This document shows positions 3,283-60,904 of a stretch of DNA of 64,000 nucleotides, piece after piece. A model generated the notes under the pieces. That model was given only the letters and a program-made list of their open reading frames with translations. It searched no databases and had not been told where the DNA came from. The position numbers were made by a program, and so were the translations under genes. This DNA comes from a virus (taxonomy: Duplodnaviria; Caudoviricetes): IMG/VR virus record IMGVR_UViG_3300043395_002393, positions 459-64,458 of that record, one strand, 5' to 3'. Within the stretch, counting starts at the first letter, position 1, and every line of letters begins with the position of its first letter.

Positions 3283-3990
3283 ATGTCACTTCTCGAATCG
3301 GTCACAAAGCAGGGCGGGACGCCGGAAGTCCGGGAGGCGCGGCGGTTGTTTCTCTACGGTGCCGGCGATGGCGTGAGGGTGCTCAAGGTCGAGCGGCTGG
3401 CGGAATTGTCGGGTGCTCACCAGCAGTCGATCCGCAAGTGGATTCCGACCTGGGAGGCGGAGCTGGAAAAGATCGTCGCGAATTCGTCGGAATTTGGACT
3501 AGAAATGCGGTTAAATGCCGAAATTCTGGCAAAACACGAAAGCGACTGTTCACAAATTCGCCGTAAAATTGATGCGCAACTCGCTGAATTAGAGCAACTT
3601 CCGAAGATCGAAAAGTCGCTTCTCGCCGCCGTTCGGGCGGTCGCGGATTGTGGAAATCCTACAGCGGCCGATTCCGCGGTTGCGCTGCTGTCTAAGTTTT
3701 TTGAAGCGGGCAACTATCGCAGGACGGCGGAGGCGCACCTGCTCAAGCTGCAAGCTCACTGGTCCCGGATGGCCGGCATCGAGTCCTTGCAAGCGGTGGC
3801 GGAAACGCGGGAGAAAGCGCTTGCAACCGGTCGAGCGAAGCTCCGGCTTAAGAGCGAAGCGGCGGAGGCCGGCGCGGCTGGTGGCGATGGTGCGCGGCCG
3901 GCCGGCGGGTCCAGCGTCGCCGGCGGCGTCTTTGCCAAGCGGTCGCCAGCTGCTCCGGTCGTCGAGTCCATCACGGAAGATGACGTTTGA
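3283..3990 (+). CDS. Putative terminase small subunit / HTH DNA-binding protein, 235 aa
   Basis: N-terminal HTH-like ARRLFL..VERLAELSGAHQQSIRKW, helical body, position beside the repeat-rich non-coding region. Start placed at MSLLES rather than at ORF-track 2821. Confidence 0.5.
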   Translation: MSLLESVTKQGGTPEVREARRLFLYGAGDGVRVLKVERLAELSGAHQQSIRKWIPTWEAELEKIVANSSEFGLEMRLNAEILAKHESDCSQIRRKIDAQLAELEQLPKIEKSLLAAVRAVADCGNPTAADSAVALLSKFFEAGNYRRTAEAHLLKLQAHWSRMAGIESLQAVAETREKALATGRAKLRLKSEAAEAGAAGGDGARPAGGSSVAGGVFAKRSPAAPVVESITEDDV

Positions 3991-4369
3991 CGCTGGCGCG
4001 GCGTCGCCGGCTCGTTTCGGATTCTCCATCGCCGGCTCGCCGGCCGGGTCGCGGCGTCTCTGGTTCTCCGGTTCCGGTTGCTGACCGGATCGCCGGTTGA
4101 CCAGGGCGGAGGCTAGCGGGGCGGGGGCATAGGGGCGCAAGGGACCCCCGGGAGCCGGCGGCGAGGGGGTACGGGGGCTTGCCGGTGCGATTCGCCAGCG
4201 AGACCGACCTCGGGAGCGGTGTGCATACACTGAGACCATTTTCAGTCCTGAAACCCGAAAACGCGAAATCCGGCTACAGTAAAGGGGAAGGGAACCCCGG
4301 ACCCCCATACCCCGGTTGCCAAGGGACCCCCTACGGGGGCCTTCAGGAACCCCTGAATTAACTTGTCGA

Positions 4370-36030: not shown

Positions 36031-39000
36031 ATGCCTCGCATCCCTTTCTCGGATCTCGCATCCGCCCCGGAGTTCCGGTCGCTCCTGCTCGAAGAGCAGC
36101 AGACTGTCGCGTCGAACTACTGGGACGAGGTCGCCGCGGAGCGCCCCGAAGCCGCGCAGTTCTTCACCGAGGTCCGCGACATGTCGAAGTCGCTGTTCGA
36201 TCTCAAGGCGCGGCGGAGCGATGCGGCCCCCATCCAGCGGCGCTTCCTCGACGCCGAGGTCCAAGACACCGCGTTCATGGTCTCTCTCGGGGAGGAGCTT
36301 GCCGCGGGAACGCTGACACCCGAAGGTCGGGACGAGGCGCTACGCCTCCGCGCCGCCGAGCAGGCGGACCACAAGGCTCGCATCGACAAGATGCGGGAGC
36401 TGACCAACCCGGAGGCGGCGGATCGCGTGGCCCCGCGTCTGGCCGGGCTGGAGCAGACGGCACTGGCCGGCGGAGTCTTCGGATCGACACCGTTCAACCA
36501 ACGGTTCATGGATGCTACGACCGACGCGGACTCGGTCGGCACGAGCCGCCAAGCCTACGAGGCGCTGCGCAGCCAGATGACTGAAGACTACGGTCTGGAG
36601 CCGGGCGAAGTGGACGATCTCATCAAGCACCGGCTCGGGTTCCAAGAGAAGCCGGTGAGCCGCGACGCCCTCGGCGTCCCGCACATCAAGCCGGAGGTCC
36701 TGGCGCAAGGCCCGGACGCCGTGAAGTCGGCGATCCTCAACTCCGACCTCCCGTGGCGCGAGAAGCAGCGGATGACCGAGTCGTCCGATCTGCGCGAGAG
36801 GATGGGGAGCTACTACCAGTCCACCTTGGAGCGCGTGAAGCAGGACCACCCGGAACTCGCCGGGCAGCTCGGTCTCGACACCGTGGACGACCCGCAGGCG
36901 GGCTACGCCGCGCTGGTGTCTTCGCTCAACCAGACGGGTTTCTCCAAGCTCGCGAGCGGTTTCACCGCCAACATCCTCGGAGCCGCGGAGGAAATCGTCC
37001 CGCGGGTCTTGGCTGGCGAACGCGCAGGGGCGGAAGAGCGGCGGCAGGAGATCCGCGAAACGATGCAGCCGACCCGCCGCGCCATCGAGTCGGCCAACCA
37101 GCTCTCGCAGGAGTTCTACGCGGACCAAGGCACTCTGTGGGGCGTGGACATGTCCTCGTTCGGGCAGGGTCTCGGCAGCGTTCTGTCGGCGACCGGCTTG
37201 GGAGTTCTCACCGGTGGCGCCAGCCTGCCCGTGAGCGCCGCCCGCGTCGCCACCATGGGGCCGACCGGTCTGCGGATGCTCAACGGCGCGAACAGCGTGC
37301 TGCGGGCGTCACCGGGCATCGGGCTCGCCATGGCGCAGACCGGCACCTCGACCTACGAGCAGGCGATCAAGTCCGGCATGTCCGAAGAGGAGGCTGGCAA
37401 AGCTGCAACGCTGTCGGCCGCCACCGAGGGCGTCATCACCGGGTTGTTCAGCCTTGTGGGCGCGGGCGGTGTGGAAGCCGTCGGCGAGCAGCTTGTGGGC
37501 ACCGCAGCCCGTCAGGCCGCCCGCGACAGCGCCAAGAGCGTTGCCCGGACCTTCGGCGAGAAGGTCGGCAAGGGGCTTCTCGGCGAGCAGTTCGAGGAGA
37601 ACCTCATCACCGCGTTCGATGCGGCCACCGTGCAGGCTCGCATCGACCCCACGATGACCGTGGACGACTTCAAGAACCAGCTTCGCGAGACGGCGCTGGT
37701 CACGCTCGCGGTGTCCGGCCCGACCGTGACGGCCGGCTCGCTGCGGGAGACTCTGGCCGAGAAGGCCACCTACGAACAAAGCACCGATGAAATCAAACTC
37801 CGAGCAGACCTCAACCTCGCTGAAGCCTCCGACCCCCTCCGCACCGCCGTCCGCCGCGAAGGTGGGATCGGAACGACCGTCGGCGAGCGGCTTCGACGAG
37901 CGGCAACTCAGCCAGGCGAGGCAAATCTTCCACCCGCCGGGCAAGCCGCGGCCGACACCACGGAAGACGGCGGAGCACCTGCTCCAGGAGCACTTGAACC
38001 TGTCGCGCCGGGAGGCACGGAGCCTGTGGCTCCGGCTCCAGTCGGAGGCGAACAAGCTCCGGCAGTCGGAGGAGCTGAAGTGCCCGGAGTGCGGACTGGA
38101 GGAGCCTCCGAGCCCGTGCTGGTGCCAGCAGATGCCGTGAACGAAACACCGGTTCGTGCAACACAAACCGGTTTGAGGGACACAGGTGAGAGACAAACTT
38201 CCGGGTTCTCGAAGCTCCGCAAAGCCGTGGGCGCGAACACCCGACTTCAAGGAGATGTTTTCGGTGACAAGATCGGATTCTCCACCAAAAAGACCGGGGA
38301 CGAGCCCGGTGTCGAGATGACCTTGGTGCCCGACGAAGAAGACCCGAACCGTGCGACCCTGGATGCCATCATCACGCCGCAAGCGGAGCGTCAAAAAGGT
38401 GCGGCGACCGAGGCGATGCAGAAGCTCACCAAGGAAGCGGACGCGGCGGGGGTCACGCTGGACTTGGATGTCCAACCGCAGCGACTTGTCCCCGAGGGGG
38501 AGACGCCGCCGATGTCCGCCGAACAGCTCAAAGACTGGTATCGCCGTTTCGGGTTCCGGTTCGCGGAAGATTCAAATCGCGGTGTCCGGCTTTCGGATTC
38601 TGAGCTCCAGAAGGCTTGGGGTGAAACTCTTCCTGCCTACACGGGGGATCTGAACACGCTCCCGGACGACCGGAACTTCTCCGACAACCAGACTCTCCGC
38701 GATGTGTTCGAGGAGAATCCCGCCAATTTTGAGGAAGGTCAGACCTACTTTGCCGAGTCGGTGTTCACGGTCCAAGACGGCAAACTCAAACGCCATCGCG
38801 GAGTCGCCGCCGATTACAACTACCGGACCAAGAAGTTCGGTCTTCGCAGAGTCGAGGACGTGGTTCCCGAGCCGCCGTCTCAGGTGTTCCACGCCGGACC
38901 TTCCAAGTTCACCCCTGAGAGCGTCCAGTTCGACAAGGGCGCGATCGGGTTTCACGCGGGCACTCGCGACCAAGCGGAGTTCGTCGCGTCCGGGAAAACC

Positions 39001-42000
39001 GGCAAGAAGCAAGGCACCATCTCCGAGTTCTCCGTGCAGGAGACTTCGGACGACGGGCAACTCCAAACGGAGACGGTGACGACCGACATGCCGTGGGAGC
39101 AGCCGGACGCGCTGCTCGCTGAACTTGTTCATCAGGGTCTCATCAACCCCGACGAGGCGACTACCTTGGTCGGGACGTGGGACATCTCGGACGAGCACAA
39201 GAACGCGGCGATGGCTGCGATCGGCAAAGCGGCTCGCATGTTCGGCAATCCCGAATTCGCCACGTTGGACGAACCCATCGGGGAGTTCTACACGAACCCC
39301 GGCACCTACCGCAACCGCGAGAAACTCGACCAAGTCCGCGAGCTTCTCATCGAAAGCGGGGTCGGTGCGATCCGCTATCCAAACGATGTCGAGGGAACTG
39401 AACCTGGCGAGTCTGTCGCGGTGCTCGACAAGCGAATGTTCTTCCGAACCACAACCCCAACAACCAATGAAGAAGTCCAAGTCGAAGAAGCAGGTGGGCT
39501 ACCTCCTGTCGAAGGGCAGCCCGCTGTCCAAGGCCCAGCAGTCCAAGCTGAAGAAGGAGCTGCACAGCGGCAAGGTGAAGGTGCGCAAGAAGTGACGGAA
39601 CCGCCGGCGGAGGCGCTGCCCGAGCCGGAGCCGAACATGGACGAGGTCTTCGCCACCTTGCGCGAACGGGAACCGACGACTCGCCGGATCAACACCAGCT
39701 CACCGAAGTTCCGGGAGCTGGTCACCGAGTTGAAGAACCAGCGAGCTGCTGCGGCGGCCGGCGGTCTGGCGCAGCGGAAGGCGGACATCGTGACTCAGCG
39801 CAAAGAGATCGAGCAAGCCCGGATCGACCGCAACAAAGAGCGGCTCAAACGCAACCGAGAACGTGCCAAAAATCGACCTCTGGACGAGCATCGGAAGCGG
39901 ATCATCGAACTTACGAAAGACGAGAGGTTCCCGGAGGGTCGGAACCCGGACTATGAAGGGGGTTTGCGTGAATGGCTCCGTGAGCGTGGTTACGACGCCA
40001 GCATCAAGAAAAAGGGTTTCCTCGACGGACTACTCGGCTATGTGACGCCTTTGCGAGTGGACAAGCGGGATCGCCTCGACGCCCTCCGCGCCACGTTGAC
40101 GCCGGAGGTCCGGGAGCTGTTGAATGCGATCTATCAGAAGCCGGAGAAAGGGAAGGAACAGATTCCGATCATCGAAGCCTTCGCCAACACCACGATCGGC
40201 GCAGCCATCTTGGAGAATAAGCTCCGCAGCCTCAAATGGTACCGTGATCGAAAACTTCCGGCACCTGGTGAATACGACATGCTGGAGGACGCAGACATCC
40301 CCGGCCACATTCAGAGTCGAGTGTTCTCTGAAAATGGTCTGACTCCAGACGTGCTTGCCAAAAACATCGCAGTCCAGAGTGAGAAAGAGGGGGGCAGTCT
40401 GAATCCTTCGGCTGAAGACATCTGGCGTGCGGTTCTCGATCTCGCGGACGGGAAAGTCACCACCGAAGAGGACGCGGAGTCCTACTACGAACGCAAGCAG
40501 CAGCAAGAGGAAGACGCAACCGTGGCTTTTGCCGAGCAGCAGCTCGAACTCGCCGGATCGGAGAACTCGCAGGTCATCGACATCACCGAGGTTCGCGAGG
40601 GCGACCGCTTCACGATCGGCGGCGTCGAATACGTGGCGGCCCAGGTCGAGGACTCGGAAGGTCTGACGGACAGCTTCGTGCTGAAGGGCGACGGCCCGCT
40701 CAATCGGACCTCCGTCACTTCCGACTTCTTCGCCGAAAGCGTTGTACCTACCGAAGGCTCCCTGGTCGGCGTTGACCCGGCGGAGGTGGAAGCATTCCGC
40801 ATCACCCAAAACGACCCGGAGTTCTACAACGAGGCGGAGCCTGCGCCCGCACCTGAGTCTGCACCTGAACCAGCTCCGGTAGCGCAAGAACAACCGGCCC
40901 CTCCACAAGCTCAAACGCCGGAGGCCCCGGAAACCCCGCAGCAGCAAGCCCCCGAGCCGGTTAAGGAAAAACCGCCGGAGGCTAAGGCAAAAGCAGAGCA
41001 ACCCATCGACGCCGTCGGCACCGCCAACGCGCTCACCGACCGGCTCCGTGCCAAACGTGGTCTGCCGCCGCGATTCGCGCCGGCCCGCCTTGGCAACGAG
41101 CAGGCGTGGGACGCGGCGATGGACCGGATCAACGCCGCCCCAGGCGTGGCGAGGAAGCTGGTGGACGAACTCAAGAAGTCGCTGCGGTCCATCGACCCGG
41201 TCGAAACCGCGATGTTCGCCCACGAAATGCTCGTTCGCGAGAACGCTCTCGATGACGCTCTCGACGCCTACAACGGCAATCCGACCGCGGAAAACCTCAA
41301 GAAGGTGCAGCTTGCCGAGACTTACCGGAATGAAGCCGTTCGGACGGCGGAGCAGATCGGCACCATCGAAGGCCGAGCCTTGCAGGCCCGCAAGATCCTC
41401 ATCCACCAGGACTTCTCCTTCGGCCGCATGGCGGCGATGAAGGTCAAGGCTCAAGGCGGCAAGGCGCTGACCGCGGACCAGACCAAGGAACTCGTCGAGT
41501 TGCACAAGCAGATGGAAGACGTGCGACGGCAGCTCGAAGCCGCCAACGCGAAGCTCGCCGAGCAGGAGGCGCAGCAGCTCACGCTGAACATCCAAGTCGA
41601 GTTCAAGAACGAGCTGAAGGCCGCCAAGAAGCGCGGCGAGAAGCCTCTCAGCTTCATCGAACGCAAGGCGGAGGAAGCCCGTGCCCGCATGGCTGCACGC
41701 AAGCAACAGGGTCGGTTGAACTCGCTCCCCGTGGACGAGTTCCTCGACATCTCCATCATCGGCGTCTCCTACATCGCCAAAGGCTTCAACACGATCGGCA
41801 CCTTCACGTCCCAACTGGTCAAGGATTTCGGTCGCAAGTATCTCCCCTTCGCCGGCGACATCTTCGCGAAGTCGCAGGAGCTTTACGACGCCGCGGCACC
41901 GTCGAGCCGGGTCAAGCCCAAGGAGGACATCCTGAACGCCATCGACGGCGACGCTCCTCTCGACGGCAAGGCGATCTACCAGCTCGTCCGGCACTACATC

Positions 42001-44877
42001 AACGAGGACGTGGAAGGAGCGACCTTCGACAACGTGATGGAGGCGGTGCTGCGGGACCTCAAGGAGTTCTACCCAGACCTCGATCGCCGGCAGCTCCACG
42101 TCGCCTACTCGAACTACGGCAAGGTCACCCAGCCAGATCCCGCGGAGGATGCGAAGAAGGCCCGCGACTACCGGGCGCTGGCTCGTCTCCAGTCGCAGCT
42201 CGAAGACGCCCAGCGCGGGCTCGCCCCGCTCAAGACGGGGATGCAGCGAGACCCCGCGGTCCAAGCAGTCCGCGACTTGGAGAAGCAGGTGCGTGACACG
42301 ATGAAGCGCCTCGGTATCAAGCCGACCAACGAGAACACCCAGCGCAAGAACCAGCTCGATGCCATCAAGACCCGGCTGCGCAATGAGTTCGAGGACCTCG
42401 ACAAAGCGGTGCGGAGCGGCACGCCGCGGCCGGCCTACCAGTCGCAGATCGAGTATGACGAGGAGGCCAAGCGGCTCAAGCAGATGCGCGACGACCGCAA
42501 GGCCGACTACGACGCGATCTTCTCGGCACCGGGGCTCACCCAGGAGCAGCATCTCGAACGCGCCGAGAAGCTGCTGGACCGCCGCATCGCGGAAGAGCGC
42601 AAGATGCTCGCGGAAGGCGTGCTCAAGCGCATCCGGGACGTGAAGATGGGTCCGTGGACCCCCGAGCTTCGGGCTCGCCAGCGGGAGCTGGATCAGCTCA
42701 AGGCCGATCGCCGCGAGCGACTGAAAGCCTCCAAGCCGAAGAAGCCGGAGGACCTCAAGAAATACGAGCGCGACTTGGCATCGCTGGAGCGCCGCATCAA
42801 GGAGGAAGAGGCGCTGCTCGCCGCGGGTCTCACCGCTCGCCAGAAGGACTTCCGCATGGGGCGCTGGAGCCCCGAGCTGGCCGAGATGCAAGTTCGTCTG
42901 GACGCCCTGCGGAACCAACGGCGCGAGCTGGCCAAGAGTCTCCGACCGAAGAAGGACGAGGCTGCGGCAGCCTACGAGAAGGCTGTCAAGGCGATCGAAG
43001 CGAGCGTCCAGCGGTACAAGGACATTCTCGCCGGCATCGCGAAGCCAGAAGCCGGGAAAAAATACACCCCGGACGCCGAGATGCTCGCGCTCATCGACCA
43101 GCGTGACGCGCTCCGGGATGCGGTCGCCGAGATGCGGGAGAGCGATCCGTCGCGCCGTGAGAAGCGCAAGCAGGATCTCATCCGGCAGCTCGACCGGTCC
43201 ATCGCCGAGATCACCCGCAAGATCCAGGACGGGGACCTCTCGACCAAGTCGAAGAGCGATCCTTTCGCGAGCGACCCGGACGTGGCCCGATTGCGCGAAG
43301 CACGGGACCTGCTCAACAAGACGGTCGCGGAGATGCGCCGGAACGCGCTACCCAAGCGCAGCCCCGAGGAGATCGCGATCAATCGTGATCGGAACATGCT
43401 CCAGCGCAAGATCGAGAAGCTCGAAACGCGCATCCGCACGAAGGACTACTCGAAGCCAGTGAAGGCTCCGAAGCCCGACTACGCCGAGCGGGACGCCCTG
43501 CTCAAGCGAAAGAAGGAGCTGGAGGCGCAGTTCAACGACGACCTACTCCAGGCCGAGCTGGCGAACCGCAGCCTCGGGAAGAAGATTTTCGACAACACCA
43601 CGGATGTCGTGTTCGGGGTGTCGCGAGCGATGCTCACCTCGTTCGACGCGGGCGCCTTCGGCCGCCAAGCCGGACTGGTCAACTTCATGCGCCCCGGTCT
43701 CGCCCTCAAGAACCTGCCGGCCAACTTCGCCTTCACCGAGAAGGCCGCGACCCGCTACGAGACGGCGTTGGAAAGCGACCCGCTGTTCGCCCGCGCCGAG
43801 GCCGCCAAGCTGGCGCTGACCACCTGGCGGCCGGGCAGCAGCCTGTCCGATCGCGAGGAGGTCTACCGCAGCCGCCTGGCGAAGAAGATCCCCGGCGTCG
43901 GTGCGTCCGAGCGTGCCTACGTCACCTACCTCAACGTGGTCCGATTCAGCTATTTCAACAAGCTGGTCGAGTCCCTGCCGGTGACCGAGCAGACCGAGGA
44001 AAACATGAAACGGATTGCATCTTTCGTGAACACGATGACGGGTCGTGGCAACCTCGGGAAGATGGAAGCCGCCGCGGCGGCGCTGGCTTCGGTGTTCTTC
44101 TCGCCGAAATACTGGTGGAGCCGCCTCCAGGTTCTCGGTGGGTTGGTCTACCACCCGCTCGACGCGCTGAGCGGCTTCCGCCTCGGTCCGAAGGAGACCG
44201 TCTCCGCCCGCAAGATCATCGCCGGCGAGTACGCCCGCCTGATCGGATCGGTCGGCTTGGTGTTCAGCCTGCTCGCGCTGGCCAAGTTCGGCTTCGGTTT
44301 CGACGATGACGAGTTCGAGGTGGTCGCCGATCCTCGCTCCAGCGACTTCGGCAAGATCAAGATCGGCAACACCCGCATCGACTTCATGGCGGGCTTGCTC
44401 CAGAACGTCGTCTTCATCTCGCGCATGGTGACCGGCGAGAAGGTTACCGCCGGCGGGGAGGTCAAGGCGATGTCGGGACCGGACGCCGGCTTCAAGGAGA
44501 CCCGTCTGGGCGAGACCATTCGCCTGCTGCGGACCAAGCTGTCTCCGGCCGCCGGGTCGATCGCCAATGCCCTCGACGGCGCCGACGTGGTCGGGAACAA
44601 GTTCAACTGGGAGACGGAGATTCTCGGTTCCTACATCCCGATGTCCGCTGCGGAAACCTACGCCTCGATGCGGGAGCTGGGGATCGCCCCAGGCGTTGCG
44701 GCCGGCCTGCTCGGCTTCATCGGTTACAGCGCCAACACCTACGGCGGCGAGGAGGAAGCCAACATCGAGCAGGACATCATGACCGGCGTGTTCGGCGTGG
44801 ACCAGTCCCGCTACGAGAAGGAGGAGCGGGAGACGGTCTACAAGCTGCCGAAGGCGAAGCCCCTACCGTCGTTCTAA
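36031..44877 (+). CDS. Giant ejection / large polyvalent protein, 2948 aa (GNAT-like, ADP-ribosyltransferase-like, helical repeats, LPD-like C-terminus)
   Basis: ERQKGAATEAMQ..LKDWYRRFGF (GNAT); VFHAG..GFHAGT..IRYPNDVEG..SVAVLD (PolyVal ART-like); DPRSSDFGKIKIGNTRID at the C-terminus. Confidence 0.8.
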   Translation: MPRIPFSDLASAPEFRSLLLEEQQTVASNYWDEVAAERPEAAQFFTEVRDMSKSLFDLKARRSDAAPIQRRFLDAEVQDTAFMVSLGEELAAGTLTPEGRDEALRLRAAEQADHKARIDKMRELTNPEAADRVAPRLAGLEQTALAGGVFGSTPFNQRFMDATTDADSVGTSRQAYEALRSQMTEDYGLEPGEVDDLIKHRLGFQEKPVSRDALGVPHIKPEVLAQGPDAVKSAILNSDLPWREKQRMTESSDLRERMGSYYQSTLERVKQDHPELAGQLGLDTVDDPQAGYAALVSSLNQTGFSKLASGFTANILGAAEEIVPRVLAGERAGAEERRQEIRETMQPTRRAIESANQLSQEFYADQGTLWGVDMSSFGQGLGSVLSATGLGVLTGGASLPVSAARVATMGPTGLRMLNGANSVLRASPGIGLAMAQTGTSTYEQAIKSGMSEEEAGKAATLSAATEGVITGLFSLVGAGGVEAVGEQLVGTAARQAARDSAKSVARTFGEKVGKGLLGEQFEENLITAFDAATVQARIDPTMTVDDFKNQLRETALVTLAVSGPTVTAGSLRETLAEKATYEQSTDEIKLRADLNLAEASDPLRTAVRREGGIGTTVGERLRRAATQPGEANLPPAGQAAADTTEDGGAPAPGALEPVAPGGTEPVAPAPVGGEQAPAVGGAEVPGVRTGGASEPVLVPADAVNETPVRATQTGLRDTGERQTSGFSKLRKAVGANTRLQGDVFGDKIGFSTKKTGDEPGVEMTLVPDEEDPNRATLDAIITPQAERQKGAATEAMQKLTKEADAAGVTLDLDVQPQRLVPEGETPPMSAEQLKDWYRRFGFRFAEDSNRGVRLSDSELQKAWGETLPAYTGDLNTLPDDRNFSDNQTLRDVFEENPANFEEGQTYFAESVFTVQDGKLKRHRGVAADYNYRTKKFGLRRVEDVVPEPPSQVFHAGPSKFTPESVQFDKGAIGFHAGTRDQAEFVASGKTGKKQGTISEFSVQETSDDGQLQTETVTTDMPWEQPDALLAELVHQGLINPDEATTLVGTWDISDEHKNAAMAAIGKAARMFGNPEFATLDEPIGEFYTNPGTYRNREKLDQVRELLIESGVGAIRYPNDVEGTEPGESVAVLDKRMFFRTTTPTTNEEVQVEEAGGLPPVEGQPAVQGPAVQAEEGAAQRQGEGAQEVTEPPAEALPEPEPNMDEVFATLREREPTTRRINTSSPKFRELVTELKNQRAAAAAGGLAQRKADIVTQRKEIEQARIDRNKERLKRNRERAKNRPLDEHRKRIIELTKDERFPEGRNPDYEGGLREWLRERGYDASIKKKGFLDGLLGYVTPLRVDKRDRLDALRATLTPEVRELLNAIYQKPEKGKEQIPIIEAFANTTIGAAILENKLRSLKWYRDRKLPAPGEYDMLEDADIPGHIQSRVFSENGLTPDVLAKNIAVQSEKEGGSLNPSAEDIWRAVLDLADGKVTTEEDAESYYERKQQQEEDATVAFAEQQLELAGSENSQVIDITEVREGDRFTIGGVEYVAAQVEDSEGLTDSFVLKGDGPLNRTSVTSDFFAESVVPTEGSLVGVDPAEVEAFRITQNDPEFYNEAEPAPAPESAPEPAPVAQEQPAPPQAQTPEAPETPQQQAPEPVKEKPPEAKAKAEQPIDAVGTANALTDRLRAKRGLPPRFAPARLGNEQAWDAAMDRINAAPGVARKLVDELKKSLRSIDPVETAMFAHEMLVRENALDDALDAYNGNPTAENLKKVQLAETYRNEAVRTAEQIGTIEGRALQARKILIHQDFSFGRMAAMKVKAQGGKALTADQTKELVELHKQMEDVRRQLEAANAKLAEQEAQQLTLNIQVEFKNELKAAKKRGEKPLSFIERKAEEARARMAARKQQGRLNSLPVDEFLDISIIGVSYIAKGFNTIGTFTSQLVKDFGRKYLPFAGDIFAKSQELYDAAAPSSRVKPKEDILNAIDGDAPLDGKAIYQLVRHYINEDVEGATFDNVMEAVLRDLKEFYPDLDRRQLHVAYSNYGKVTQPDPAEDAKKARDYRALARLQSQLEDAQRGLAPLKTGMQRDPAVQAVRDLEKQVRDTMKRLGIKPTNENTQRKNQLDAIKTRLRNEFEDLDKAVRSGTPRPAYQSQIEYDEEAKRLKQMRDDRKADYDAIFSAPGLTQEQHLERAEKLLDRRIAEERKMLAEGVLKRIRDVKMGPWTPELRARQRELDQLKADRRERLKASKPKKPEDLKKYERDLASLERRIKEEEALLAAGLTARQKDFRMGRWSPELAEMQVRLDALRNQRRELAKSLRPKKDEAAAAYEKAVKAIEASVQRYKDILAGIAKPEAGKKYTPDAEMLALIDQRDALRDAVAEMRESDPSRREKRKQDLIRQLDRSIAEITRKIQDGDLSTKSKSDPFASDPDVARLREARDLLNKTVAEMRRNALPKRSPEEIAINRDRNMLQRKIEKLETRIRTKDYSKPVKAPKPDYAERDALLKRKKELEAQFNDDLLQAELANRSLGKKIFDNTTDVVFGVSRAMLTSFDAGAFGRQAGLVNFMRPGLALKNLPANFAFTEKAATRYETALESDPLFARAEAAKLALTTWRPGSSLSDREEVYRSRLAKKIPGVGASERAYVTYLNVVRFSYFNKLVESLPVTEQTEENMKRIASFVNTMTGRGNLGKMEAAAAALASVFFSPKYWWSRLQVLGGLVYHPLDALSGFRLGPKETVSARKIIAGEYARLIGSVGLVFSLLALAKFGFGFDDDEFEVVADPRSSDFGKIKIGNTRIDFMAGLLQNVVFISRMVTGEKVTAGGEVKAMSGPDAGFKETRLGETIRLLRTKLSPAAGSIANALDGADVVGNKFNWETEILGSYIPMSAAETYASMRELGIAPGVAAGLLGFIGYSANTYGGEEEANIEQDIMTGVFGVDQSRYEKEERETVYKLPKAKPLPSF
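37787..38140 (+). CDS. Nested out-of-frame gene in the giant ORF, 117 aa, ending CPEC..CWC
   Basis: Alternative frame is GC3-rich where the main frame turns A/T-ending; AC-rich leader. Confidence 0.55.
   Translation: MKSNSEQTSTSLKPPTPSAPPSAAKVGSERPSASGFDERQLSQARQIFHPPGKPRPTPRKTAEHLLQEHLNLSRREARSLWLRLQSEANKLRQSEELKCPECGLEEPPSPCWCQQMP
39467..39595 (+). CDS. Nested out-of-frame basic peptide MKKSKSKKQVGYLLSKGSPLSKAQQSKLKKELHSGKVKVRKK
   Basis: All sense codons end in G/C; leader CCGAACCACAACCCCAACAACCA like other genes of this phage. Confidence 0.8.
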   Translation: MKKSKSKKQVGYLLSKGSPLSKAQQSKLKKELHSGKVKVRKK

Positions 44878-54896: not shown

Positions 54897-57455
54897 TCAG
54901 AGATAGTCGATGGATTCGGCGAGACGCATCTCCAGCAGCTCTTCGGCCGCGATGATGCCGGGGTCGTAGTTGTCCCGATGGACCCAGATCGCGGAGCGGG
55001 TGCCGTTGAAAACGAAGCGGCGGCCCTCCTGGTAACGCTCGTAGCCGAGAACGGCGAGGTAGTGGGCGGGCTTGTGATTGTTCTTCGACTCCTCTACCGT
55101 GAGGCGGGTCACTTCGGACGCCAGGATGACATCGGGGCCGATCAGTGGGTTGCTGCTTTCGATCAAGTCCTCGATGGCGATCTGGAGGCGGTTCTTGCTG
55201 GCCTCGATCATCTCCCTGCGATACTTGGTCCGCGGGGCGTCGTTGACCGGGAAGGAGTCCGGGATCGGGTAACCGAGCAGGGCGTGGCGCAGCGCCCCGG
55301 CGTGGTTGTGAATGATGTCCGCGGCTTCCTCGAAGATGCCTGATGCCCGCAGCCGGTCGCGGTCGGCCGCCGTCTGGATGGGGGACCTCACCGGAGCGTA
55401 GCGCCGGTCGCTCTCGGTCATGTAAAGCGCCCCTTCGTGGTTGGTGTAGGCGATGCAGTTGGCGAAGTTCAGGATCTTCCGGGCGTCGCGGTTCTTCCGG
55501 TTCATGGTCACCTCGCTGTTGGTCACCAGGGTCTTGAGCTTGTCCATAATCGCGGCGCGGTTCTCACCGGCGACGTAGATTTCCTCGAACACGATCAACT
55601 GCTTGCCATACTTCCAATCGTCGAAGTCCGAGCGGATGAGGTTCGGCTCGATGGCGATCACGTTGGACTCGCCGATGGCGGCTCCGACCATGGAGGCGAT
55701 CTGGGACTTGCCTGCGCCCTCGCCGGACTGCACACAGAAGCACCAGCGGATCTTGTGACCCGGACGCTGGACGAGGTGGGCGAAGAACTGCATGGCCAGT
55801 TCCCACACCTCGCCGAAGACGTTCTTGACCATCTGCTCGAAGACGCGCAGCGCCCGCTCGGAGCCGACCGAGGTCTCGGTGGGCGTGGTGTCGGCGCGGT
55901 ACTCGTTGAGGTATTTCACGCCCTTGTATTCGAAAATCGACGGGGTGTCGGGTCGGGGGTCGTACATCGTCGAGTCCACCCGGTCGATGGCTTGGACGTT
56001 CAGGGCGAACTTGTCAGGGTTGACCAAGGGGAGGCCGATCTTGGCCAGCTCGTTGTCCTTCTCGTCGCTCATCAGGCGCACCGAGTAGGTCAGGTTGAAG
56101 TTGGTCGGGGTCAACCGGACGCCGCTGGCCTTGTTGACGAACTCGCCATCGGTCGAGACGAACACCCACGGGCGGAGCCACCCTGGCAGCTCCTTCTTGT
56201 TGCTCTCGACCCTGGCGACCGTGCGGGCCTGCTTGAGCGCCTTGTTCGCGGTGGTGGCGGTGATCGGAGCACCGAGTTCCTTGAGCCGGGAGCGGAACGT
56301 GTCGAGCAGCCGGGCCTCGGTGATCGCGTCGCGGATCGGGAACGCGGCGATGCGGGCCGGACCCTCGCGGCCGAGGAGCTTGGGATCGTCCTGTGCGGCG
56401 ATCCACTCCTCCAACTTCTCGCCCAGCTCCTCGGTGGCCTTCTCGGGCTTCCAACCGGCCTGCTTCGCGTGGTGGTAGAGGGTCGAGATCGTGACGGGTC
56501 GCTTGCCGGTCGGGTCGGGCTTGAAGCTGCGCCACTTCGAGAACGTCTCCTTCTCGCCCTTGTATTTCGCCCCTTGGGACGACCACTCGTCGAACAGCTC
56601 GTAGGCTTGCCGCGCCTCGTCCTCACGGCGGAACTGGTGCCGCAGCGCCGAGGCGACCTCGGTCCACCTCTTGTAGCCGCCCGAGTCCGGGTCGATGGCG
56701 AACAGCGGCTCGCGGATCTCGTCCACGGTCAGTCCGTATGCGGGGAGGTTGTCGAGGCCGATGTCGTCGTCACCGCCGGCCGAGTAGGTCCGCTGGTCCG
56801 GGGTCTCGGGGATCTCTTCGATGGACTGGTGATCGAGGTCGACACCGCTGGTGCGGACGGCGAGCAGGCGCGGGGTCGAGTTGTCCTCGTCCTTGAAGAT
56901 GACGGGCCGATAGGCGGGCTGGGATAGAACGGTGGATTCAACAACCCCTTTGAAGTCGTGCGGCAGCCCGAGACGGTCGGCGAGATGGCGGATGATCTTG
57001 CGCCGATGGATCGGGTCGCAAGGGGTCAGCGGGACGATGATCCGAAGCCGCGGACGCTCCGGTGTGTGGTTCGCCGTGGCGTAGGCCAGGTAGTTGAGCG
57101 GGGCGAGGGCCTCGCCGATGCACTCCGGGCATTGCCAGAAGTCGCTGACGTAGTCGGGCTCGTCGAAGTCCACGTCCGGCGGATCGAGGTCGAGGCAGGC
57201 CAGCACCAGCTTGTCGGCGTTGGCGTCGCACCGCTTGGTCTCGCCGGGCTTGAAGGTGCAAGACGTGACGCAGGGACCGTCCTTGATGTGGTCCCGCTCG
57301 GTCTTCGGCAGTGCCAGGAACTCGGCGCGTTCCATCCCGATCGGCACCGGCACGTCGAAGTATTTGCGCACCAGCTCGTCGAAAGTGCTTGCCTTCAGGG
57401 GGTGGATCTTCCCCGACCTCGCGCTGGGTCCGCCGTAGTAGGTGAAGGTGCTCAT
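54897..57455 (-). CDS. Primase-helicase (AEP-like + PriCT_2 + DUF5906/SF3 NTPase), 852 aa
   Basis: LDLD, YATANH, RLRIIVP; WTEVASAL..FDEWSSQGAKY (PriCT_2); SGEGAGKS, FEE, YTNH, DRRY. Confidence 0.88.
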   Translation of the reverse strand: MSTFTYYGGPSARSGKIHPLKASTFDELVRKYFDVPVPIGMERAEFLALPKTERDHIKDGPCVTSCTFKPGETKRCDANADKLVLACLDLDPPDVDFDEPDYVSDFWQCPECIGEALAPLNYLAYATANHTPERPRLRIIVPLTPCDPIHRRKIIRHLADRLGLPHDFKGVVESTVLSQPAYRPVIFKDEDNSTPRLLAVRTSGVDLDHQSIEEIPETPDQRTYSAGGDDDIGLDNLPAYGLTVDEIREPLFAIDPDSGGYKRWTEVASALRHQFRREDEARQAYELFDEWSSQGAKYKGEKETFSKWRSFKPDPTGKRPVTISTLYHHAKQAGWKPEKATEELGEKLEEWIAAQDDPKLLGREGPARIAAFPIRDAITEARLLDTFRSRLKELGAPITATTANKALKQARTVARVESNKKELPGWLRPWVFVSTDGEFVNKASGVRLTPTNFNLTYSVRLMSDEKDNELAKIGLPLVNPDKFALNVQAIDRVDSTMYDPRPDTPSIFEYKGVKYLNEYRADTTPTETSVGSERALRVFEQMVKNVFGEVWELAMQFFAHLVQRPGHKIRWCFCVQSGEGAGKSQIASMVGAAIGESNVIAIEPNLIRSDFDDWKYGKQLIVFEEIYVAGENRAAIMDKLKTLVTNSEVTMNRKNRDARKILNFANCIAYTNHEGALYMTESDRRYAPVRSPIQTAADRDRLRASGIFEEAADIIHNHAGALRHALLGYPIPDSFPVNDAPRTKYRREMIEASKNRLQIAIEDLIESSNPLIGPDVILASEVTRLTVEESKNNHKPAHYLAVLGYERYQEGRRFVFNGTRSAIWVHRDNYDPGIIAAEELLEMRLAESIDYL

Positions 57456-57649
57456 GCTTTGGGCTTGGCGTAGAGTTCGCCGTCAAATTCCTGATACTCG
57501 TATTCGTCCTCCTGCGTCGGACCAGGACACTCGCACTCATCGCAGTAGTCGAGACCGCAGATCGAGCACTCGTTACCAAGCTCATCCTCACTGCCCCCGA
57601 GGCAGTCGGCAGCGAAGCTCACTTTCTTCCATCCTGTGGGTGGGTTCAT
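57452..57649 (-). CDS. Small Cys-rich acidic protein, 65 aa
   Basis: CSICGLDYCDECECPGPT; ATGA overlap. Confidence 0.65.
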   Translation of the reverse strand: MNPPTGWKKVSFAADCLGGSEDELGNECSICGLDYCDECECPGPTQEDEYEYQEFDGELYAKPKA

Positions 57650-58262
57650 TCAGATAGACAGGTAGAGGTCCCATTGATCAGCCATCGCGTCGGCGATGCC
57701 TTGGTAGGTTCGCGACCGCTCTTTCCAGCGGTCTTCAGAAGGTCCGAGACGGTTCTGACCGCTATCAGTCTGGTTGGCCCACCGCTTCCGACCCCCGACA
57801 ATGCGGGGCGCGACGAGCTTGGTGGGAGAGAGAGAGAGGCGGCAGATTTTTCAGCCACAAGCAGGTGGCCTTGCTGGCGTCGTCGCCGAACTGGTAGGGC
57901 TGGATGATCTGCGTCGGTTTGCAGATTCGTTTCGAGAGGATTCCAATTGGGTTCTCCAGTGCGATGTGAGGTATCGGCTGCTCCCACAGCATCCTGAAAA
58001 ACTCGACGGCTGCTTCCGTCTTCTCCCAGCCGCGACCCCTGTCGTTCCAGTGGATGCCCGACCCACAAACGTAGGTGCACTCCGGGAAAGCGATCAGCAC
58101 GTCCCAGCCTTTGTCGATGACTTCCCGCAGGTCGCACTGGAGGTGGTATGGTGAAGGGGTCTCTGCCGGCAGAAGATCGCAGCTCCACGCATCGTGTCCG
58201 AGCTTTCGGAAAGCATCTCGGACCCGACCGGAGTACTCGCAAGCTACGAGGATGCGTTTCAT
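57650..58262 (-). pseudogene. DNA cytosine methyltransferase-like gene frameshifted at a (CT)6 tract
   Basis: ILVACEYSG, IAFPECT, ALENP, KATCLWLKNLPPL, then the conserved RWANQTDSGQN..RSRTYQGIADAMADQW continues in another frame after 57827-57838. Confidence 0.85.
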
Positions 58263-58459
58263 TCGGCGAAGCCTTTTCCGGTGAGAGCGCGATGGACTTT
58301 CTCGGCTTGGACGAAGTCGAACTTCGTCTGCCGACCGGTGTACCAGCTCCAGAGGCTCATCATCGGAACCTCCGCTTCGCGGGCGATGACGGCGAGCTTC
58401 CTGCCGTCTTTTCGGATGGCTTCGCGGAGCCGTTGGTCGACGGTCGTGGACTCAGGCAT
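58259..58459 (-). CDS. Cro-like HTH regulator, 66 aa
   Basis: LREAI..LAVIAREAEVPMMSLWSW; first gene after a promoter. Confidence 0.7.
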   Translation of the reverse strand: MPESTTVDQRLREAIRKDGRKLAVIAREAEVPMMSLWSWYTGRQTKFDFVQAEKVHRALTGKGFAE

Positions 58460-58471
58460 GTCGGTTCGGGG

Positions 58472-58516
58472 ACGGTGGGGTTCTCGGGGTCGGAGGTCAA
58501 TCAAGAAATCTTGATT
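58472..58516 (-). promoter_or_regulatory. Promoter TTGACC-N17-CACCGT with adjacent operator-like palindrome AATCAAGA-AA-TCTTGATT
   Basis: Hexamers at 58495-58500 and 58472-58477; IR at 58499-58516. Confidence 0.55.
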
Positions 58517-58552
58517 TAGTGTCGGAAATAAACCAAGAAGGGGGTCAATGCG

Positions 58553-58783
58553 TTACGGAGGATCTCCCAACTCGGGGTGGGGGTATTCACTGTTCGCGGT
58601 AATGAATTGGCGTATATCCTCGGCGTGCTGCTCAACCGTAACGTCTTCTCGGAACGTGGACGTGATTCCACTTTTAGCGACTGGTGATGGCTTCCGAGAT
58701 TTGACCACGCGCTGGGGCAAGCCGCGAACAAGGCGGTGATCAGAACCGCCCGAAGGCGTCTGTTGTGATGGTGAAGCTTTCAT
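58553..58783 (-). CDS. Cassette A ORF, 76 aa, starts inside attC1
   Basis: ATGA-coupled to the upstream ORF. Confidence 0.45.
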   Translation of the reverse strand: MKASPSQQTPSGGSDHRLVRGLPQRVVKSRKPSPVAKSGITSTFREDVTVEQHAEDIRQFITANSEYPHPELGDPP

Positions 58784-58813
58784 AATGGGCGGTCTGATAC
58801 CTCGGCGTTCTCC
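58723..58813 (+). repeat. attC-like site 1
   Basis: CGCGAAC-AAGGC-GGTGATCAGAACCGCCC ... GGGCGGTCTGATACC-TCGGC-GTTCTCC with bulged bases. Confidence 0.8.
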
Positions 58814-59004
58814 CGAATAAAATCCCCGCGTAGATTCCGCATGGAGATTCCGGCGGCTTTGAGCTGTGCGGGCGTTCGCTCGCTGGTTTCGATCACCCGT
58901 TCCTCGCAGTTCACGAAGAGTCGGAATGTCGTCATTTGCTCAGGGGATTCCTCGCGGAGTGCTTCCACAAGCGCGTCGATTGCGTTGGTGATTTTCGGTG
59001 TCAT
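58780..59004 (-). CDS. Cassette B ORF, 74 aa (MTPKITNAID...)
   Basis: Protein-like composition; stop lies inside attC1. Confidence 0.65.
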   Translation of the reverse strand: MTPKITNAIDALVEALREESPEQMTTFRLFVNCEERVIETSERTPAQLKAAGISMRNLRGDFIRENAEVSDRPL

Positions 59005-59022
59005 ATCGGTGATTCGGAAAAG

Positions 59023-59112
59023 GGAGAACAAGGGTGGTGGAGAGGAACCGCCGGGAACGCGGCTATTGAAATCGGCATCTATGGCGGCGGTCCCTCACCA
59101 CCAGCGTTCTGC
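59023..59112 (+). repeat. attC-like site 2
   Basis: GGAGAAC-AAGGG-TGGTGGAGAGGAACCGCC ... GGCGGTCCCTCACCA-CCAGC-GTTCTGC. Confidence 0.8.
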
Positions 59113-59294
59113 AAAGGAAACCACGAATGAACCCGGCTCCTGAATACGCCGTCGCGATCCTCCCACCGGAACTTTTCGGCGTTCCATCGGCCTTCAAATC
59201 GCGTTGGCCCGCCGTCGCCGTCTGGATGCCTTTCCAGCATGACCCATCGGTCACGCGGAGCAGTCACCATGCTTGTATCTCGTTTCGTTTTCAT
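59079..59294 (-). CDS. Cassette C ORF2, 71 aa (DUF551-like MVTAPRD...HSWFPL)
   Basis: TAPRD and W-x-P-L motifs; stop lies inside attC2. Confidence 0.55.
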   Translation of the reverse strand: MKTKRDTSMVTAPRDRWVMLERHPDGDGGPTRFEGRWNAEKFRWEDRDGVFRSRVHSWFPLQNAGGEGPPP

Positions 59295-59605
59295 TTCGTA
59301 TTCTGCTGAGACTTGCATGAGCGGCAGTGTGATCCGCAGTAGTAGCTTATTTGATCGCAGGTCATGCCCTTTGATGATTTCTCCACGCACACGGCGGGCG
59401 GATTTTTCCGCAGGTATTCCCGCCTCGCGTTCGCCGCGTCGATCCTGCGTTGACCATCCGGCGTGATCGGATCTTCCATGACGGCATCGAATTTACCACA
59501 GTCGCACCTTGCCGCCTCGCCCTCACAGAAGAAGCAGAACAAGGCCGCCGCATGCAACGCCGGAGGCGCTGCATCTTCAATTCGGGCTGTGAGGGCGGCG
59601 TGCAT
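59291..59605 (-). CDS. Cassette C ORF1, Cys-rich, 104 aa
   Basis: Starts inside attC3; ATGA-coupled to ORF2. Confidence 0.45.
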   Translation of the reverse strand: MHAALTARIEDAAPPALHAAALFCFFCEGEAARCDCGKFDAVMEDPITPDGQRRIDAANARREYLRKNPPAVCVEKSSKGMTCDQISYYCGSHCRSCKSQQNTK

Positions 59606-59622
59606 GGGCTTAGTCGTTCCCC
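59534..59622 (+). repeat. attC-like site 3
   Basis: GCAGAAC-AAGGCC-GCCGCATGCAACGCC ... GGCGTGCATGGGC-TTAGTC-GTTCCCC. Confidence 0.78.
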
Positions 59623-60089
59623 CCGATGATCCGCTGCCATTGGCCGCCGGCTTCGGGGTCTTTCAGGATGAGTTTTTGAATCCGGCGGCGGGCATGGATG
59701 ACGGTGGTGTGATCCCTGCGACCGCAGGCCGCGGCTGCATCCTGGAGAGAGCGGCCGGAGTGATGGATGGCAGCCATGGCCATCTGGCGAGCGAGCGCGA
59801 TCTTGGCATTGCCGCGCGCGCGAGCGGCGAGGGCGGTGACAGAAACGCCAAACTCGGCGGCAGCACGCTGAATGATTTCCGATTCCAGGGAGCGCCAGTC
59901 GGCGTCCGCGAGCAGATCATTGACTCCGCCCAGGGTGGCGCGCAGGACCTTGCGGCGCTGGCGGAGGTCGAGGAGCGATTGATTGACGCCGGCCAGGGTG
60001 GTGCGCAGGGCCTCGCGGCGGTGGCGGACCTCGATCAGCAGCTCGCCGAGCGAGAAGCGGGCGAGGGCAGGAATGGCGTGGGCTTCCAT
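59610..60089 (-). CDS. DnaA C-terminal (Bac_DnaA_C) HTH domain protein
   Basis: AAAEFGVSV..ALARQMAM..SLQDAAAACGRRDHTTVIHARRRI. Confidence 0.85.
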   Translation of the reverse strand: MEAHAIPALARFSLGELLIEVRHRREALRTTLAGVNQSLLDLRQRRKVLRATLGGVNDLLADADWRSLESEIIQRAAAEFGVSVTALAARARGNAKIALARQMAMAAIHHSGRSLQDAAAACGRRDHTTVIHARRRIQKLILKDPEAGGQWQRIIGGND

Positions 60090-60094
60090 GGCGG

Positions 60095-60403
60095 TCAGTC
60101 GTCGATGTCCAGGACGGCGGTGATTTCCAGGAGGCCGCGCTGGGCGGCCCAGGGGCGGCAGCTCTTGATGATCTCCTCCGGGCGGCGGACGCCGTGGCGC
60201 TGGTAGCTGCGGCGGGTGCGCTCGCGGAGGGCGTAGGCGACTTCCTCACACCAGATCTTGTAAGCGTGTCCCGCACGGCGCGGGGCACCGTAGCGGGCGA
60301 AAGCGCGGCGCAGGGCGGCGCGCTGCTCCTTGCGGGTCTTCCCCGCCATCTCGATCATCACCGGGGCGATGATGGAGCGGGCAATGGTTCGCCAGGTGGT
60401 CAT
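60095..60403 (-). CDS. Hypothetical phage protein, 102 aa
   Basis: TWR..A..II..RAGHAYKIWCEEV motif; GC3-rich. Confidence 0.7.
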   Translation of the reverse strand: MTTWRTIARSIIAPVMIEMAGKTRKEQRAALRRAFARYGAPRRAGHAYKIWCEEVAYALRERTRRSYQRHGVRRPEEIIKSCRPWAAQRGLLEITAVLDIDD

Positions 60404-60406
60404 GGG

Positions 60407-60904
60407 TCAGCGGAGGTAGGAGTCCTGGTGAGGGCGGTGAATGGTGGCGCGCCAGGCGAGGCTGCGGGCGTCGCGGTAGAGCTCGACCCGCGCCCAGCAG
60501 CCCATGCAGCAGCCGGTGAGTTCGGCATCGGGGCCGTCTTCGGGATCGTAGTCCGGGAGGAAGGGGGAATCGATGGGTGCCCAGCCGTCATTCGCGGCGA
60601 TGCAGTGGCCGCAGTGGAGCAGGACCTGGTTGGGAAGGCCGGCGGCATCCTCGACCAGGGAATGGATGCGGGACTCGCGACGGGTCAGGATCTCGACGGC
60701 GGCGCGGAAGAGACGACTGGAAAAGCGCCCTTTATAGTACCGATCGCGGATGCGGATCTGCCCGGCGCCAACGAAGGCGAGGCCGCGGGTGTGCCAGAGA
60801 CGCTCGCAGCGGCTGAGGAGCATGCCCTCGTGGTTGTTCGGGAAGCGGGTGGCGGTGGCGAGCCATTGGTTCCGTTTGGTGTTCTTGGTCGTGGTGGTGT
60901 TCAT
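60407..60904 (-). CDS. Hypothetical Zn-ribbon protein, 165 aa
   Basis: CGHC...CMGC; SD GAGGA. Confidence 0.65.
   Translation of the reverse strand: MNTTTTKNTKRNQWLATATRFPNNHEGMLLSRCERLWHTRGLAFVGAGQIRIRDRYYKGRFSSRLFRAAVEILTRRESRIHSLVEDAAGLPNQVLLHCGHCIAANDGWAPIDSPFLPDYDPEDGPDAELTGCCMGCWARVELYRDARSLAWRATIHRPHQDSYLR

Follow-up and report, generated by a model that had tools for sequence, protein, structure and literature searches.

Sites and cassettes of the array

We analyzed a stretch of phage DNA of 64,000 nucleotides (nt), here called the window, which comprises bases 459 to 64458 of the 64,458-base IMG/VR record IMGVR_UViG_3300043395_002393, a record classed as linear with an estimated completeness of 79%. 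The phage is of freshwater origin, and the window has a G+C content of 64%. The locus under study is a candidate integron array that sits among genes on the minus strand, in a pattern typical of a phage replication/early module. Its most conspicuous features are three imperfect palindromes of 83 to 85 nt on the plus strand, P1 (58726-58810), P2 (59026-59109), and P3 (59537-59619), each of the form GAACAAGG...GTTC and each found where an earlier reading made from the letters alone (the sequence-only reading) had placed it. A count of the pattern GAACAAGG-N55-85-GTTC gave four matches in the window against 0.26 expected, and 0 of 100 shuffles reached four. The fourth match (56160-56247, minus strand) lies within the primase gene, scores 12 to 13 bits in the site models described below, and is unrelated.

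The palindromes are linked by a chain of matching flanks. At all three junctions, the bases that follow GTTC and those ahead of the next GAAC match exactly as reverse complements: GTTCGCGG (58592) is complementary to CCGCGAAC (58722) at 8 of 8 positions, GTTCTCCC (58807) to GGGAGAAC (59022) at 8 of 8, and GTTCTGC (59106) to GCAGAAC (59534) at 7 of 7. Eleven variable bases are matched in this way beside the fixed GTTC and GAAC, an outcome for which simple arithmetic gives a chance of about 4^-11. Both this complementarity and the unit lengths of 215, 299, and 510 bp had been read correctly from the letters.

Cassette A (58594-58807, 215 bp; TTCGCGG...CCGCGAAC-P1-G) is the unit nearest the attI-like end and has no convincing gene of its own. 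A 76-amino-acid open reading frame (ORF; 58553-58783, minus strand) extends from the P1 loop across cassette A and into the attI remnant; it matched nothing in Pfam or PHROGs. Cassette B (58808-59106, 299 bp) carries an ORF of 74 to 83 amino acids (58780-59004/59031, minus strand), and cassette C (59107-59616, 510 bp) carries two ORFs with overlapping stop and start, C1 (59291-59605, minus strand; 104 amino acids, Cys-rich) and C2 (59079-59294, minus strand; 71 amino acids). Pfam and PHROG searches of the cassette ORFs returned no fitting family, the one weak match, in cassette C, being to a PHROG of unknown function. All plausible ORFs lie on the minus strand and, as the sequence-only reading had claimed, begin or end inside the sites: P3 holds the stop codon of the adjoining DnaA_C gene (59610-59612) and an ATG at 59605, P2 holds a stop at 59079, and P1 holds a stop at 58780 that overlaps an ATG at 58783 (ATGA). 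A second ATGA overlap is found at 59291-59294.

Our attC calls come from covariance models built in this analysis. One model, R2, was made from 22 sites of integrase-linked arrays in other phage contigs with the window rows left out; its sister, R1, includes them. When run on the 64-kb window, R2 returned exactly P1, P2, and P3, all on the minus (bottom) strand, at 51.8 to 55.1 bits, with the next best match at 12.3. With its 5-nt flanks, attC P1 of cassette A occupies 58722-58814 (55.1 bits with R2, 64.5 with R1). The attC P2 of cassette B spans 59022-59113 and scores 51.8 bits with R2 and, with R1, 63.3 bits on the minus strand versus 8.2 on the plus strand, while attC P3 of cassette C spans 59533-59623, overlaps the final codons of the DnaA_C gene, and scores 52.4 and 68.5 bits, respectively. 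On the plus strand of the three sites, R1 gave at most 8.2 bits.

An alignment of 25 sites, the three from the window included, has the AAC and GTT triplets invariant in 25 of 25, with AAC+G and TTGTT likewise invariant. From the outside inward, the consensus fold consists of a 4-pair R box, an unpaired spacer of 5 to 6 columns, a 3-bp L box, one bulge that is mostly C, a 6-bp stem, a bulged and nearly invariant T, and a further stem; the 3' arm of P1, for instance, reads GGGCGG-T-TCTGAT-C-ACCG-CCTT-GTT. Compensatory changes were present in 11 of the 15 consensus pairs. Paired cells amounted to 86.7%, compared to 66.4% in shuffles (0 of 500 reached the real value) and 32 to 58% in slid-partner controls, and the covariation score was 0.49 versus 0.16 in shuffles. 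A passage in Nivina 2016 (PMC5027507) describes the attC bottom strand as having two to three extrahelical bases near L'', the farthest of which is a T, with a spacing of 6 bp. The column pattern of our alignment (stem-T-6 bp-C/G-3..4 bp-spacer-GTT) follows this rule, and the hairpin of R box, unpaired spacer, L box, and variable loop is conserved by structure rather than by sequence. Judged by sequence and covariation, then, we take the three window sites to be integron-type attC sites.

The models also recognize bacterial sites. In In2 of R100, R1 found the attC of aadA1 (30.6 bits, E 8e-7; next 11.1 bits), and in the dfrA12-gcuF-aadA2 array of a Klebsiella plasmid it found three of three attC sites (33.7, 18.1, and 15.4 bits). 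All four of these class 1 matches lie on the strand opposite the cassette gene, which is the strand of intI1. Two further loci (L028 and L023) contained no R1 match better than 12.9 bits. A scan of 57500-60500 against Rfam, which has no attC family, gave five weak chance matches only.

The sites also bear resemblances to one another across contigs. The center of P2 (59046-59120) is 80% identical to an attC of the phage contig L012 (4976-5050), with stems that differ through paired changes, and the attC before cassette B in the contig L004 resembles P2 only loosely. The attC sites look mosaic.

The attI-like end and related phage integrons

After the last half-site of the array, CCGCGAA|C, comes an attI-like remnant (58535-58593, minus strand) with no integrase behind it. 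Its core, AACAG-AAT, is invariant in the window and in five integrase-linked loci (L009, L010, L011, L013, and L014), and the ~28 bases that follow are a near match to the site ahead of the L014 integrase. Past this remnant, at 58518/58534, backbone homology to two further contigs, L002 and L003, picks up. At the distal end of the array lies a DnaA_C-type helix-turn-helix gene (59610-60089, minus strand; PF08299, E 1e-13), whose last codons, GGG GGG AAC, are the distal half-site. The sequence-only reading had joined this gene in frame at G^TT across the excised units, as ..IIGG-NSEYPHPELGDPP*. The joined sequence is real, whereas the tail turned out to be attI-like and not a chance GTT insertion. 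P0002, the one close relative of the DnaA_C protein (78% identity), shares the ..IIGGN but continues with a different tail in place of the predicted one, and no relatives of the protein were found in viral contigs. A metagenome scan for such relatives returned only a bacterial dnaA-dnaN-gyrB locus (L001), which we set aside as irrelevant. A further cassette upstream of the DnaA_C gene was considered and rejected as well, there being no partner for GTTCCCCC and no attC model match.

In agreement with the sequence-only reading, searches of the window for an integrase were empty: there were 0 matches to TIGR02249, 0 to PF00589, and no tblastn match below an E value of 0.4 with three IntI proteins. 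The window therefore holds what defines a cluster of attC sites lacking integron integrases (CALIN), namely, three attC sites in a span of 900 bp with no intI anywhere in the 64 kb, and has an attI-like end in addition. Because the tail of the DnaA_C gene corresponds to the attI-like site of the phage integron family described below, the array would have begun as a complete phage integron that later lost intI. In its composition, the window array is an integrase-less remnant of a phage integron, that is, a CALIN plus attI.

Related IMG/VR phage contigs carry an IntI-like integrase some 40 to 57 nt past the last half-site. In one of them (G001; loci L004/L008), we counted 12 sites, with a flank chain that is exact over at least 8 bases at 10 junctions and imperfect at 2. 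The junctions of this contig include a co-varying fourth base (GTTA/TAAC and GTTG/CAAC), and the conserved core is therefore AAC/GTT. The array closes with a lone half-site, and about 40 nt on, on the same strand, is the ATG of a tyrosine recombinase of 324 amino acids. The flank chain is present in L011, L012, and L013 as well, and in L009 through L013 the sites lie directly upstream of the integrase gene, on its strand. An intI gene next to attI and an array, the arrangement of a complete integron, is found in G001, L010, L011, L012, and L013 and not in the window. Downstream of the integrase, attC-like matches were seen in L014 (4218-4314, 46.9 bits) and L010 (4463-4588, 40.6 bits); these are perhaps second arrays.

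The recombinase of G001 has TIGR02249 as its best NCBIfam match (180 bits, versus 98 for XerD) and VchIntIA (2A3V) as its best PDB match (E 1.4e-32), in one stretch that runs through the IntI-specific insert that Xer proteins lack. Alignment with IntI1 of R100 gives 36% identity over 276 amino acids, the insert included. These three comparisons put the recombinase near the integron integrases. The catalytic residues are invariant in 20 aligned members. We found 709 homologues at E <= 1e-10. Among the best 120 of these 709, identity ranges from 68 to 100% (the top one being the query's own cluster), and none is on a contig longer than 62.4 kb; one homologue is named as coming from an uncultured Caudovirales phage. 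Relatives of the recombinase occur at eight further viral loci, one of which is an identical duplicate. Of the 29 cassette ORFs that make up the cargo of the relatives, 6 code for DNA methyltransferases and the others have no family.

Cassette exchange, gene strand, and rival explanations

The polarity of the cassettes is visible in a comparison of L011 with L012. Their common flanks, which include the integrase, are 100% and 99.99% identical, whereas the order and content of their cassettes differ. Blocks made of an attC and the segment that follows it have moved: L011 4466-5218 corresponds to L012 1927-2679 (99.9% identity), L011 2573-2827 corresponds to L012 2669-2923 (97.6%), and some cassettes are unique to one contig or the other. 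Homology of the moved blocks extends from the AAC of the site to just past the AAC that closes the segment. Therefore, in gene orientation, the site precedes its segment and the crossover AA|C lies at the 5' end of the site, a polarity that also accounts for the lone half-site at the integrase end. It is the polarity that the sequence-only reading had assigned, with the window's plus strand as the integron top strand.

These movements bear on the explanation that the palindromes are intergenic RNA or DNA hairpins (terminators, REP-like repeats, or translational couplers) or Xer-type sites, and not integron recombination sites at all. The overlap of the sites with gene ends and starts, their A/T-rich loops with ATGA, and the lack of an Rfam family for them would all suit such hairpins. 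However, hairpins of this kind leave unexplained the flank chain, the adjoining IntI-like gene, the bulge geometry, and the cross-matches to class 1 attC sites, and they are contradicted by the movement of site-plus-segment blocks between the near-identical L011 and L012. We consider this explanation highly improbable.

The window belongs to a set of modular loci. The backbone locus that carries the array is free of sites in L002 and holds a single attC with one cassette in L003, compared to three in the window. L002 does not qualify as an empty attI: the array is missing, but the junction lacks the clean AA|C of an empty site. Over 58804-59033, that is, cassette B, the window is 93.5% identical to L004, 89.6% to L005, and 93.2% to L006, with homology that stops at both R boxes; the cassette B protein recurs in three other viral contigs. 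A homologue of C1 (56% amino acid identity) stands behind a P3-like attC in L026; this attC and P3 are identical at 80 of 91 bases and have different 5' flanks. In L005, the 3' end of cassette B is duplicated in tandem (4128-4283 and 3854-3983), and the site before the duplicated B looks hybrid, with a different palindrome followed by a 3' arm like that of L004 and a score of only 14 bits with R1.

In run X1, the probable source sample, the contigs have breaks at 58807 and 59109. Contig depth is 34.1 as far as 58836, rises to 48.6 in the B unit, and drops to 10.4 from 59080 onward, and a 303-nt contig spans exactly 58807-59109, the B unit. The loose ends run into other sequence on both sides, and one of them resembles the array terminus of L003. 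Because the depths differ across the array, the assembled window may be one of several coexisting variants on the same backbone. In a run from another study, cassette B is found beside a different hairpin; runs X3 and X4 contain only small parts of the window region. As all these runs consist of contigs, depth and absence in them say little. Modular gain, loss, and exchange of cassettes, which the sequence-only reading had led one to look for, are seen in L002/L003, in L011/L012, in L026, and in the contig breaks at the GTT boundaries. Together these observations show that the cassettes are modular in relatives and in the probable source sample.

A sceptic could accept the sites as attC and still regard the array as an inert relic that is simply inherited, with variants spread by homologous recombination between mosaic phages and no integrase acting. 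The record lacks intI, the fusion of ORFs across cassette borders through stop-start overlaps suggests long residence, and the alternative contig junctions could stem from other phage lineages with their own integrase. Weighed against this, the junction variants of the source sample fall exactly at the GTTC boundaries (58807 and 59109) and not at random points. Cassettes B and C1 stand on backbones without detectable window genes: a tblastn search with 12 window proteins against 13 loci, the integrase-bearing ones among them, found no common backbone. In addition, integrases able to work in trans abound in the same habitat and in the host phylum. We hold an inert relic to be unlikely, if a serious contender.

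The strand of the cassette genes sets the phage arrays apart. In 39 of 41 cassettes from seven phage arrays, it is the attC bottom strand that bears the longest ORF, which is co-directional with intI and points toward attI; the count includes copies common to L011 and L012 and uses longest-ORF calls that are crude in DNA of 64% G+C. In the class 1 control (L024), the longest ORF was on the bottom strand in 0 of 3 cassettes. In the phage arrangement, each attC stands ahead of its gene, unlike in bacterial cassettes. What the sequence-only reading had proposed for the window, namely, attC sites around three cassettes, their polarity, and a reversed gene orientation co-directional with the phage replication/early genes, is supported by the models, the covariation, the shuffled arrays of relatives, and the contig breaks at the GTT boundaries.

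Relatives of the phage integrase also occur on contigs of Akkermansiaceae, Luteolibacter, and Verrucomicrobiales metagenome-assembled genomes (MAGs). An IntI above the TIGR02249 cut-off is present in three of five of these Verrucomicrobiota MAGs, at 348 to 423 bits. In these MAGs (G005 to G009, behind L019 to L023), we also observed that phage-type integrases (185 to 230 bits to TIGR02249) and the host-type ones stand together, often several per genome. One Verrucomicrobiales MAG contig, L029, encodes an IntI of 395.6 bits next to five sites that score 53 to 64 bits with R1 and have GTTC/GAAC R boxes and the flank chain of the phage arrays. Only one of its five longest ORFs is on the bottom strand; the other four, which include PEP-CTERM-type proteins, are on the usual strand. 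One attC type therefore serves both kinds of array, with the genes on one strand in hosts and on the other in phages.

The integrases of this phylum give some substance to what the sequence-only reading had concluded, namely, that the phage borrows the chromosomal integron integrase of its bacterial host: above-cut-off IntI proteins are present in most of the MAGs, and L029 has attC sites of the very type found in the window. However, the attI-like remnant of the window matches the phage-type attI and is not a random GTT, and the host cassette genes are on the other strand, so the two pools are not simply shared. We rate borrowing from a host integron as improbable, more so than the inert relic.

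We favor instead the reading that the locus is what remains of a phage-borne integron after loss of its integrase, with an attI-like site followed by three cassettes that each end in their own attC, and give it a probability of roughly 85%. Along the integron top strand, which is the plus strand of the window, the order would be the attI-like site (58535-58593) and then the three cassettes. An IntI-type tyrosine recombinase would fold the attC bottom strand (the window's minus strand) and cut between the A and C of the 5' AAC, and strand exchange with attI or with another attC would lead to cassette insertion at attI, excision, or reshuffling. The exchange of blocks between the near-identical L011 and L012 lends indirect support to recombination of such sites by an integron integrase. 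The array would be read by run-through of the early/replication operon, from the DnaA_C gene through the cassettes to an 81-amino-acid gene and the primase, with stops and starts inside the hairpins, and the cassette genes are accordingly predicted to be expressed as part of the phage operon. Recombination may be ongoing in the window phage, through an IntI acting in trans; either the phage type or the host type of Verrucomicrobiota, which has the same attC type, could serve.

Several results weigh against this phage-integron reading. No integrase is encoded in the 64.5-kb record, itself estimated to be 79% complete, and the G001 recombinase, at 180 bits, falls below the TIGR02249 cut-off of 265. 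A third class 1 array (L025) yielded no R1 match at E <= 0.05. The extended consensus RYYYAAC/GTTRRRY does not hold, as GTT is followed by C in 21 of 25 sites, by A in 2, and by G in 2; because GTTC is also found in a bacterial integron whose IntI passes TIGR02249, the GTTC form looks like a lineage trait. Folding of the bottom strands, which the sequence-only reading had named as a check, set P2 apart, was marginal for P1, and did not favor P3: z scores for single-stranded DNA folds of P1, P2, and P3 were -2.0, -3.9, and +0.3 on the plus strand and -1.9, -3.8, and -0.2 on the minus strand. By energy alone, P2 stands out and P3 is no better than shuffles, the latter fitting the structural model only once aligned. 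The attC next to cassette B differs between the window and L004, although B itself is 93% identical, which the AA|C crossover alone is insufficient to explain. Finally, the source-sample runs are contigs and not reads, so that they display variants rather than events, and no excision circle or empty junction was seen in them; the crude ORF calls behind the strand count belong on the same side.

The surroundings of the array are as follows. The replication/early block on the minus strand includes a Mu Gam-like gene, the PriCT_2/DUF5906 primase (54897-57455), a DUF2800 nuclease, an Enc34-type single-stranded DNA-binding protein, a family A polymerase, and SNF2 and HD proteins. The block also has a 165-amino-acid ORF (57765-58262, minus strand) that matches PHROG 757, a DNA methyltransferase (E 1e-48); it covers only positions 14 to 177 of the 247-position profile and may be a short or truncated form. 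The 81-amino-acid gene, together with a conserved inverted repeat at 58499-58519 (58259-58519 in all, minus strand), is the start of the backbone that alignment and blastn identify as common to L002 and L003. The inverted repeat, of the type AATCAAGA-TT-TCTTGATT, stands just before this gene in the window (58499-58519), L002 (6940-6965), and L003 (6940-6965), marks where the backbone homology of the three picks up again, and is possibly an operator or promoter element. G+C content is 0.50 to 0.59 over the cassettes (58500-59499), compared to 0.63 to 0.73 over 59500-60499. A search of PHROGs with 11 large window ORFs gave a single weak tail-fiber match, and the structural genes are almost unrecognizable; the viral nature of the record consequently rests on the IMG/VR label and the replication genes. 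The structural half contains a single ORF of 2,948 amino acids (36031-44877, plus strand) with high third-position G+C.

Comparison with known integrons

Integrons are known as bacterial gene-capture platforms, and their reported occurrence in phages is rare and mostly in fragments (Qi 2023). Our finding points to a dedicated phage integron family, which we saw in a few viral contigs and at which the metagenomic homologues of the integrase, in their hundreds, hint. This family shuffles small accessory genes between unrelated phage backbones, often DNA methyltransferases with a likely anti-restriction role. Its reversed orientation breaks the rule that cassettes depend on the Pc promoter. Compared with host integrons of the same attC type, it gives a way to ask how new cassettes arise and what determines their polarity. 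Systems of this sort may escape profile cut-offs, as the distance of the phage integrase from the TIGR02249 threshold illustrates.

We tentatively propose, at odds slightly short of even, that these arrays represent a distinct and widespread integron lineage in freshwater Verrucomicrobiota phages, with its own IntI clade and its own reverse-coded cassette pool (attC before the gene, gene on the bottom strand), of which the window is an integrase-less member that may trade cassettes in trans. If this is true, a cassette landing at attI would join the 3' end of a phage operon and would not be driven by a Pc promoter. The bottom strand would be the displaced non-template strand on transcription, which could couple expression with hairpin folding and recombination. 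Given that the same attC type has its genes on the other strand in hosts, the phage and host cassette pools would have to be made separately, and the contrast between host and phage would be a natural comparison for how cassettes are born.

Among known systems, the closest in setting are phage CALINs. The main-text sections of Qi et al. 2023 (PMC9892861) that we compared report integron components in 21 of 10,705 NCBI phage genomes, with 17 CALINs, most finds being CALINs or fragments of bacterial integrons; recombination with attI1 was shown there for five phage attC sites, and five DNA methyltransferases are among the cassettes. Given that report, phage CALINs as such are already known. The window resembles them, so far as those sections describe them, in having an attC cluster without an integrase in a phage, and methyltransferase cargo recurs in its relatives. 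It differs in its attI-like end and in belonging to a family with its own IntI-like clade; neither a phage-specific integrase clade nor bottom-strand genes are described in the sections compared. A full-text search of the main texts of open-access papers found no description of a phage IntI clade of this kind or of bottom-strand cassettes. The window thus looks like a CALIN in a phage, of a seemingly new integron variant that is phage-borne, is reverse-coded, and has its own integrase clade.

Like class 1 In2 of R100 and sedentary chromosomal integrons, the phage arrays have intI and attI adjacent, with attC bottom-strand matches upstream of intI on the same strand. The AA|C crossover and the succession of R box, spacer, L box, and two bulges 6 bp apart are likewise those of canonical integrons. 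In contrast to the latter, the phage cassette genes lie on the attC bottom strand and head toward attI and intI instead of leading away from a Pc promoter, the R box usually reads GTTC and not GTTR, and the window has no integrase. With the Treponema-type "inverted integrase" integrons, as characterized in passages of two reports (PMC3607928 and PMC4889954), the phage arrays share a common direction of intI and cassette genes. However, in the Treponema type described there, intI is transcribed toward attI and it is the integrase that is flipped, whereas in the phage arrays intI points away from attI and it is the genes that are flipped. The integron of L029 is alike in its attC type, its R1 scores, its GTTC/GAAC boxes, and its flank chain, and it is unlike the phage arrays in having an IntI that passes TIGR02249 and four of its five cassette genes on the usual strand.

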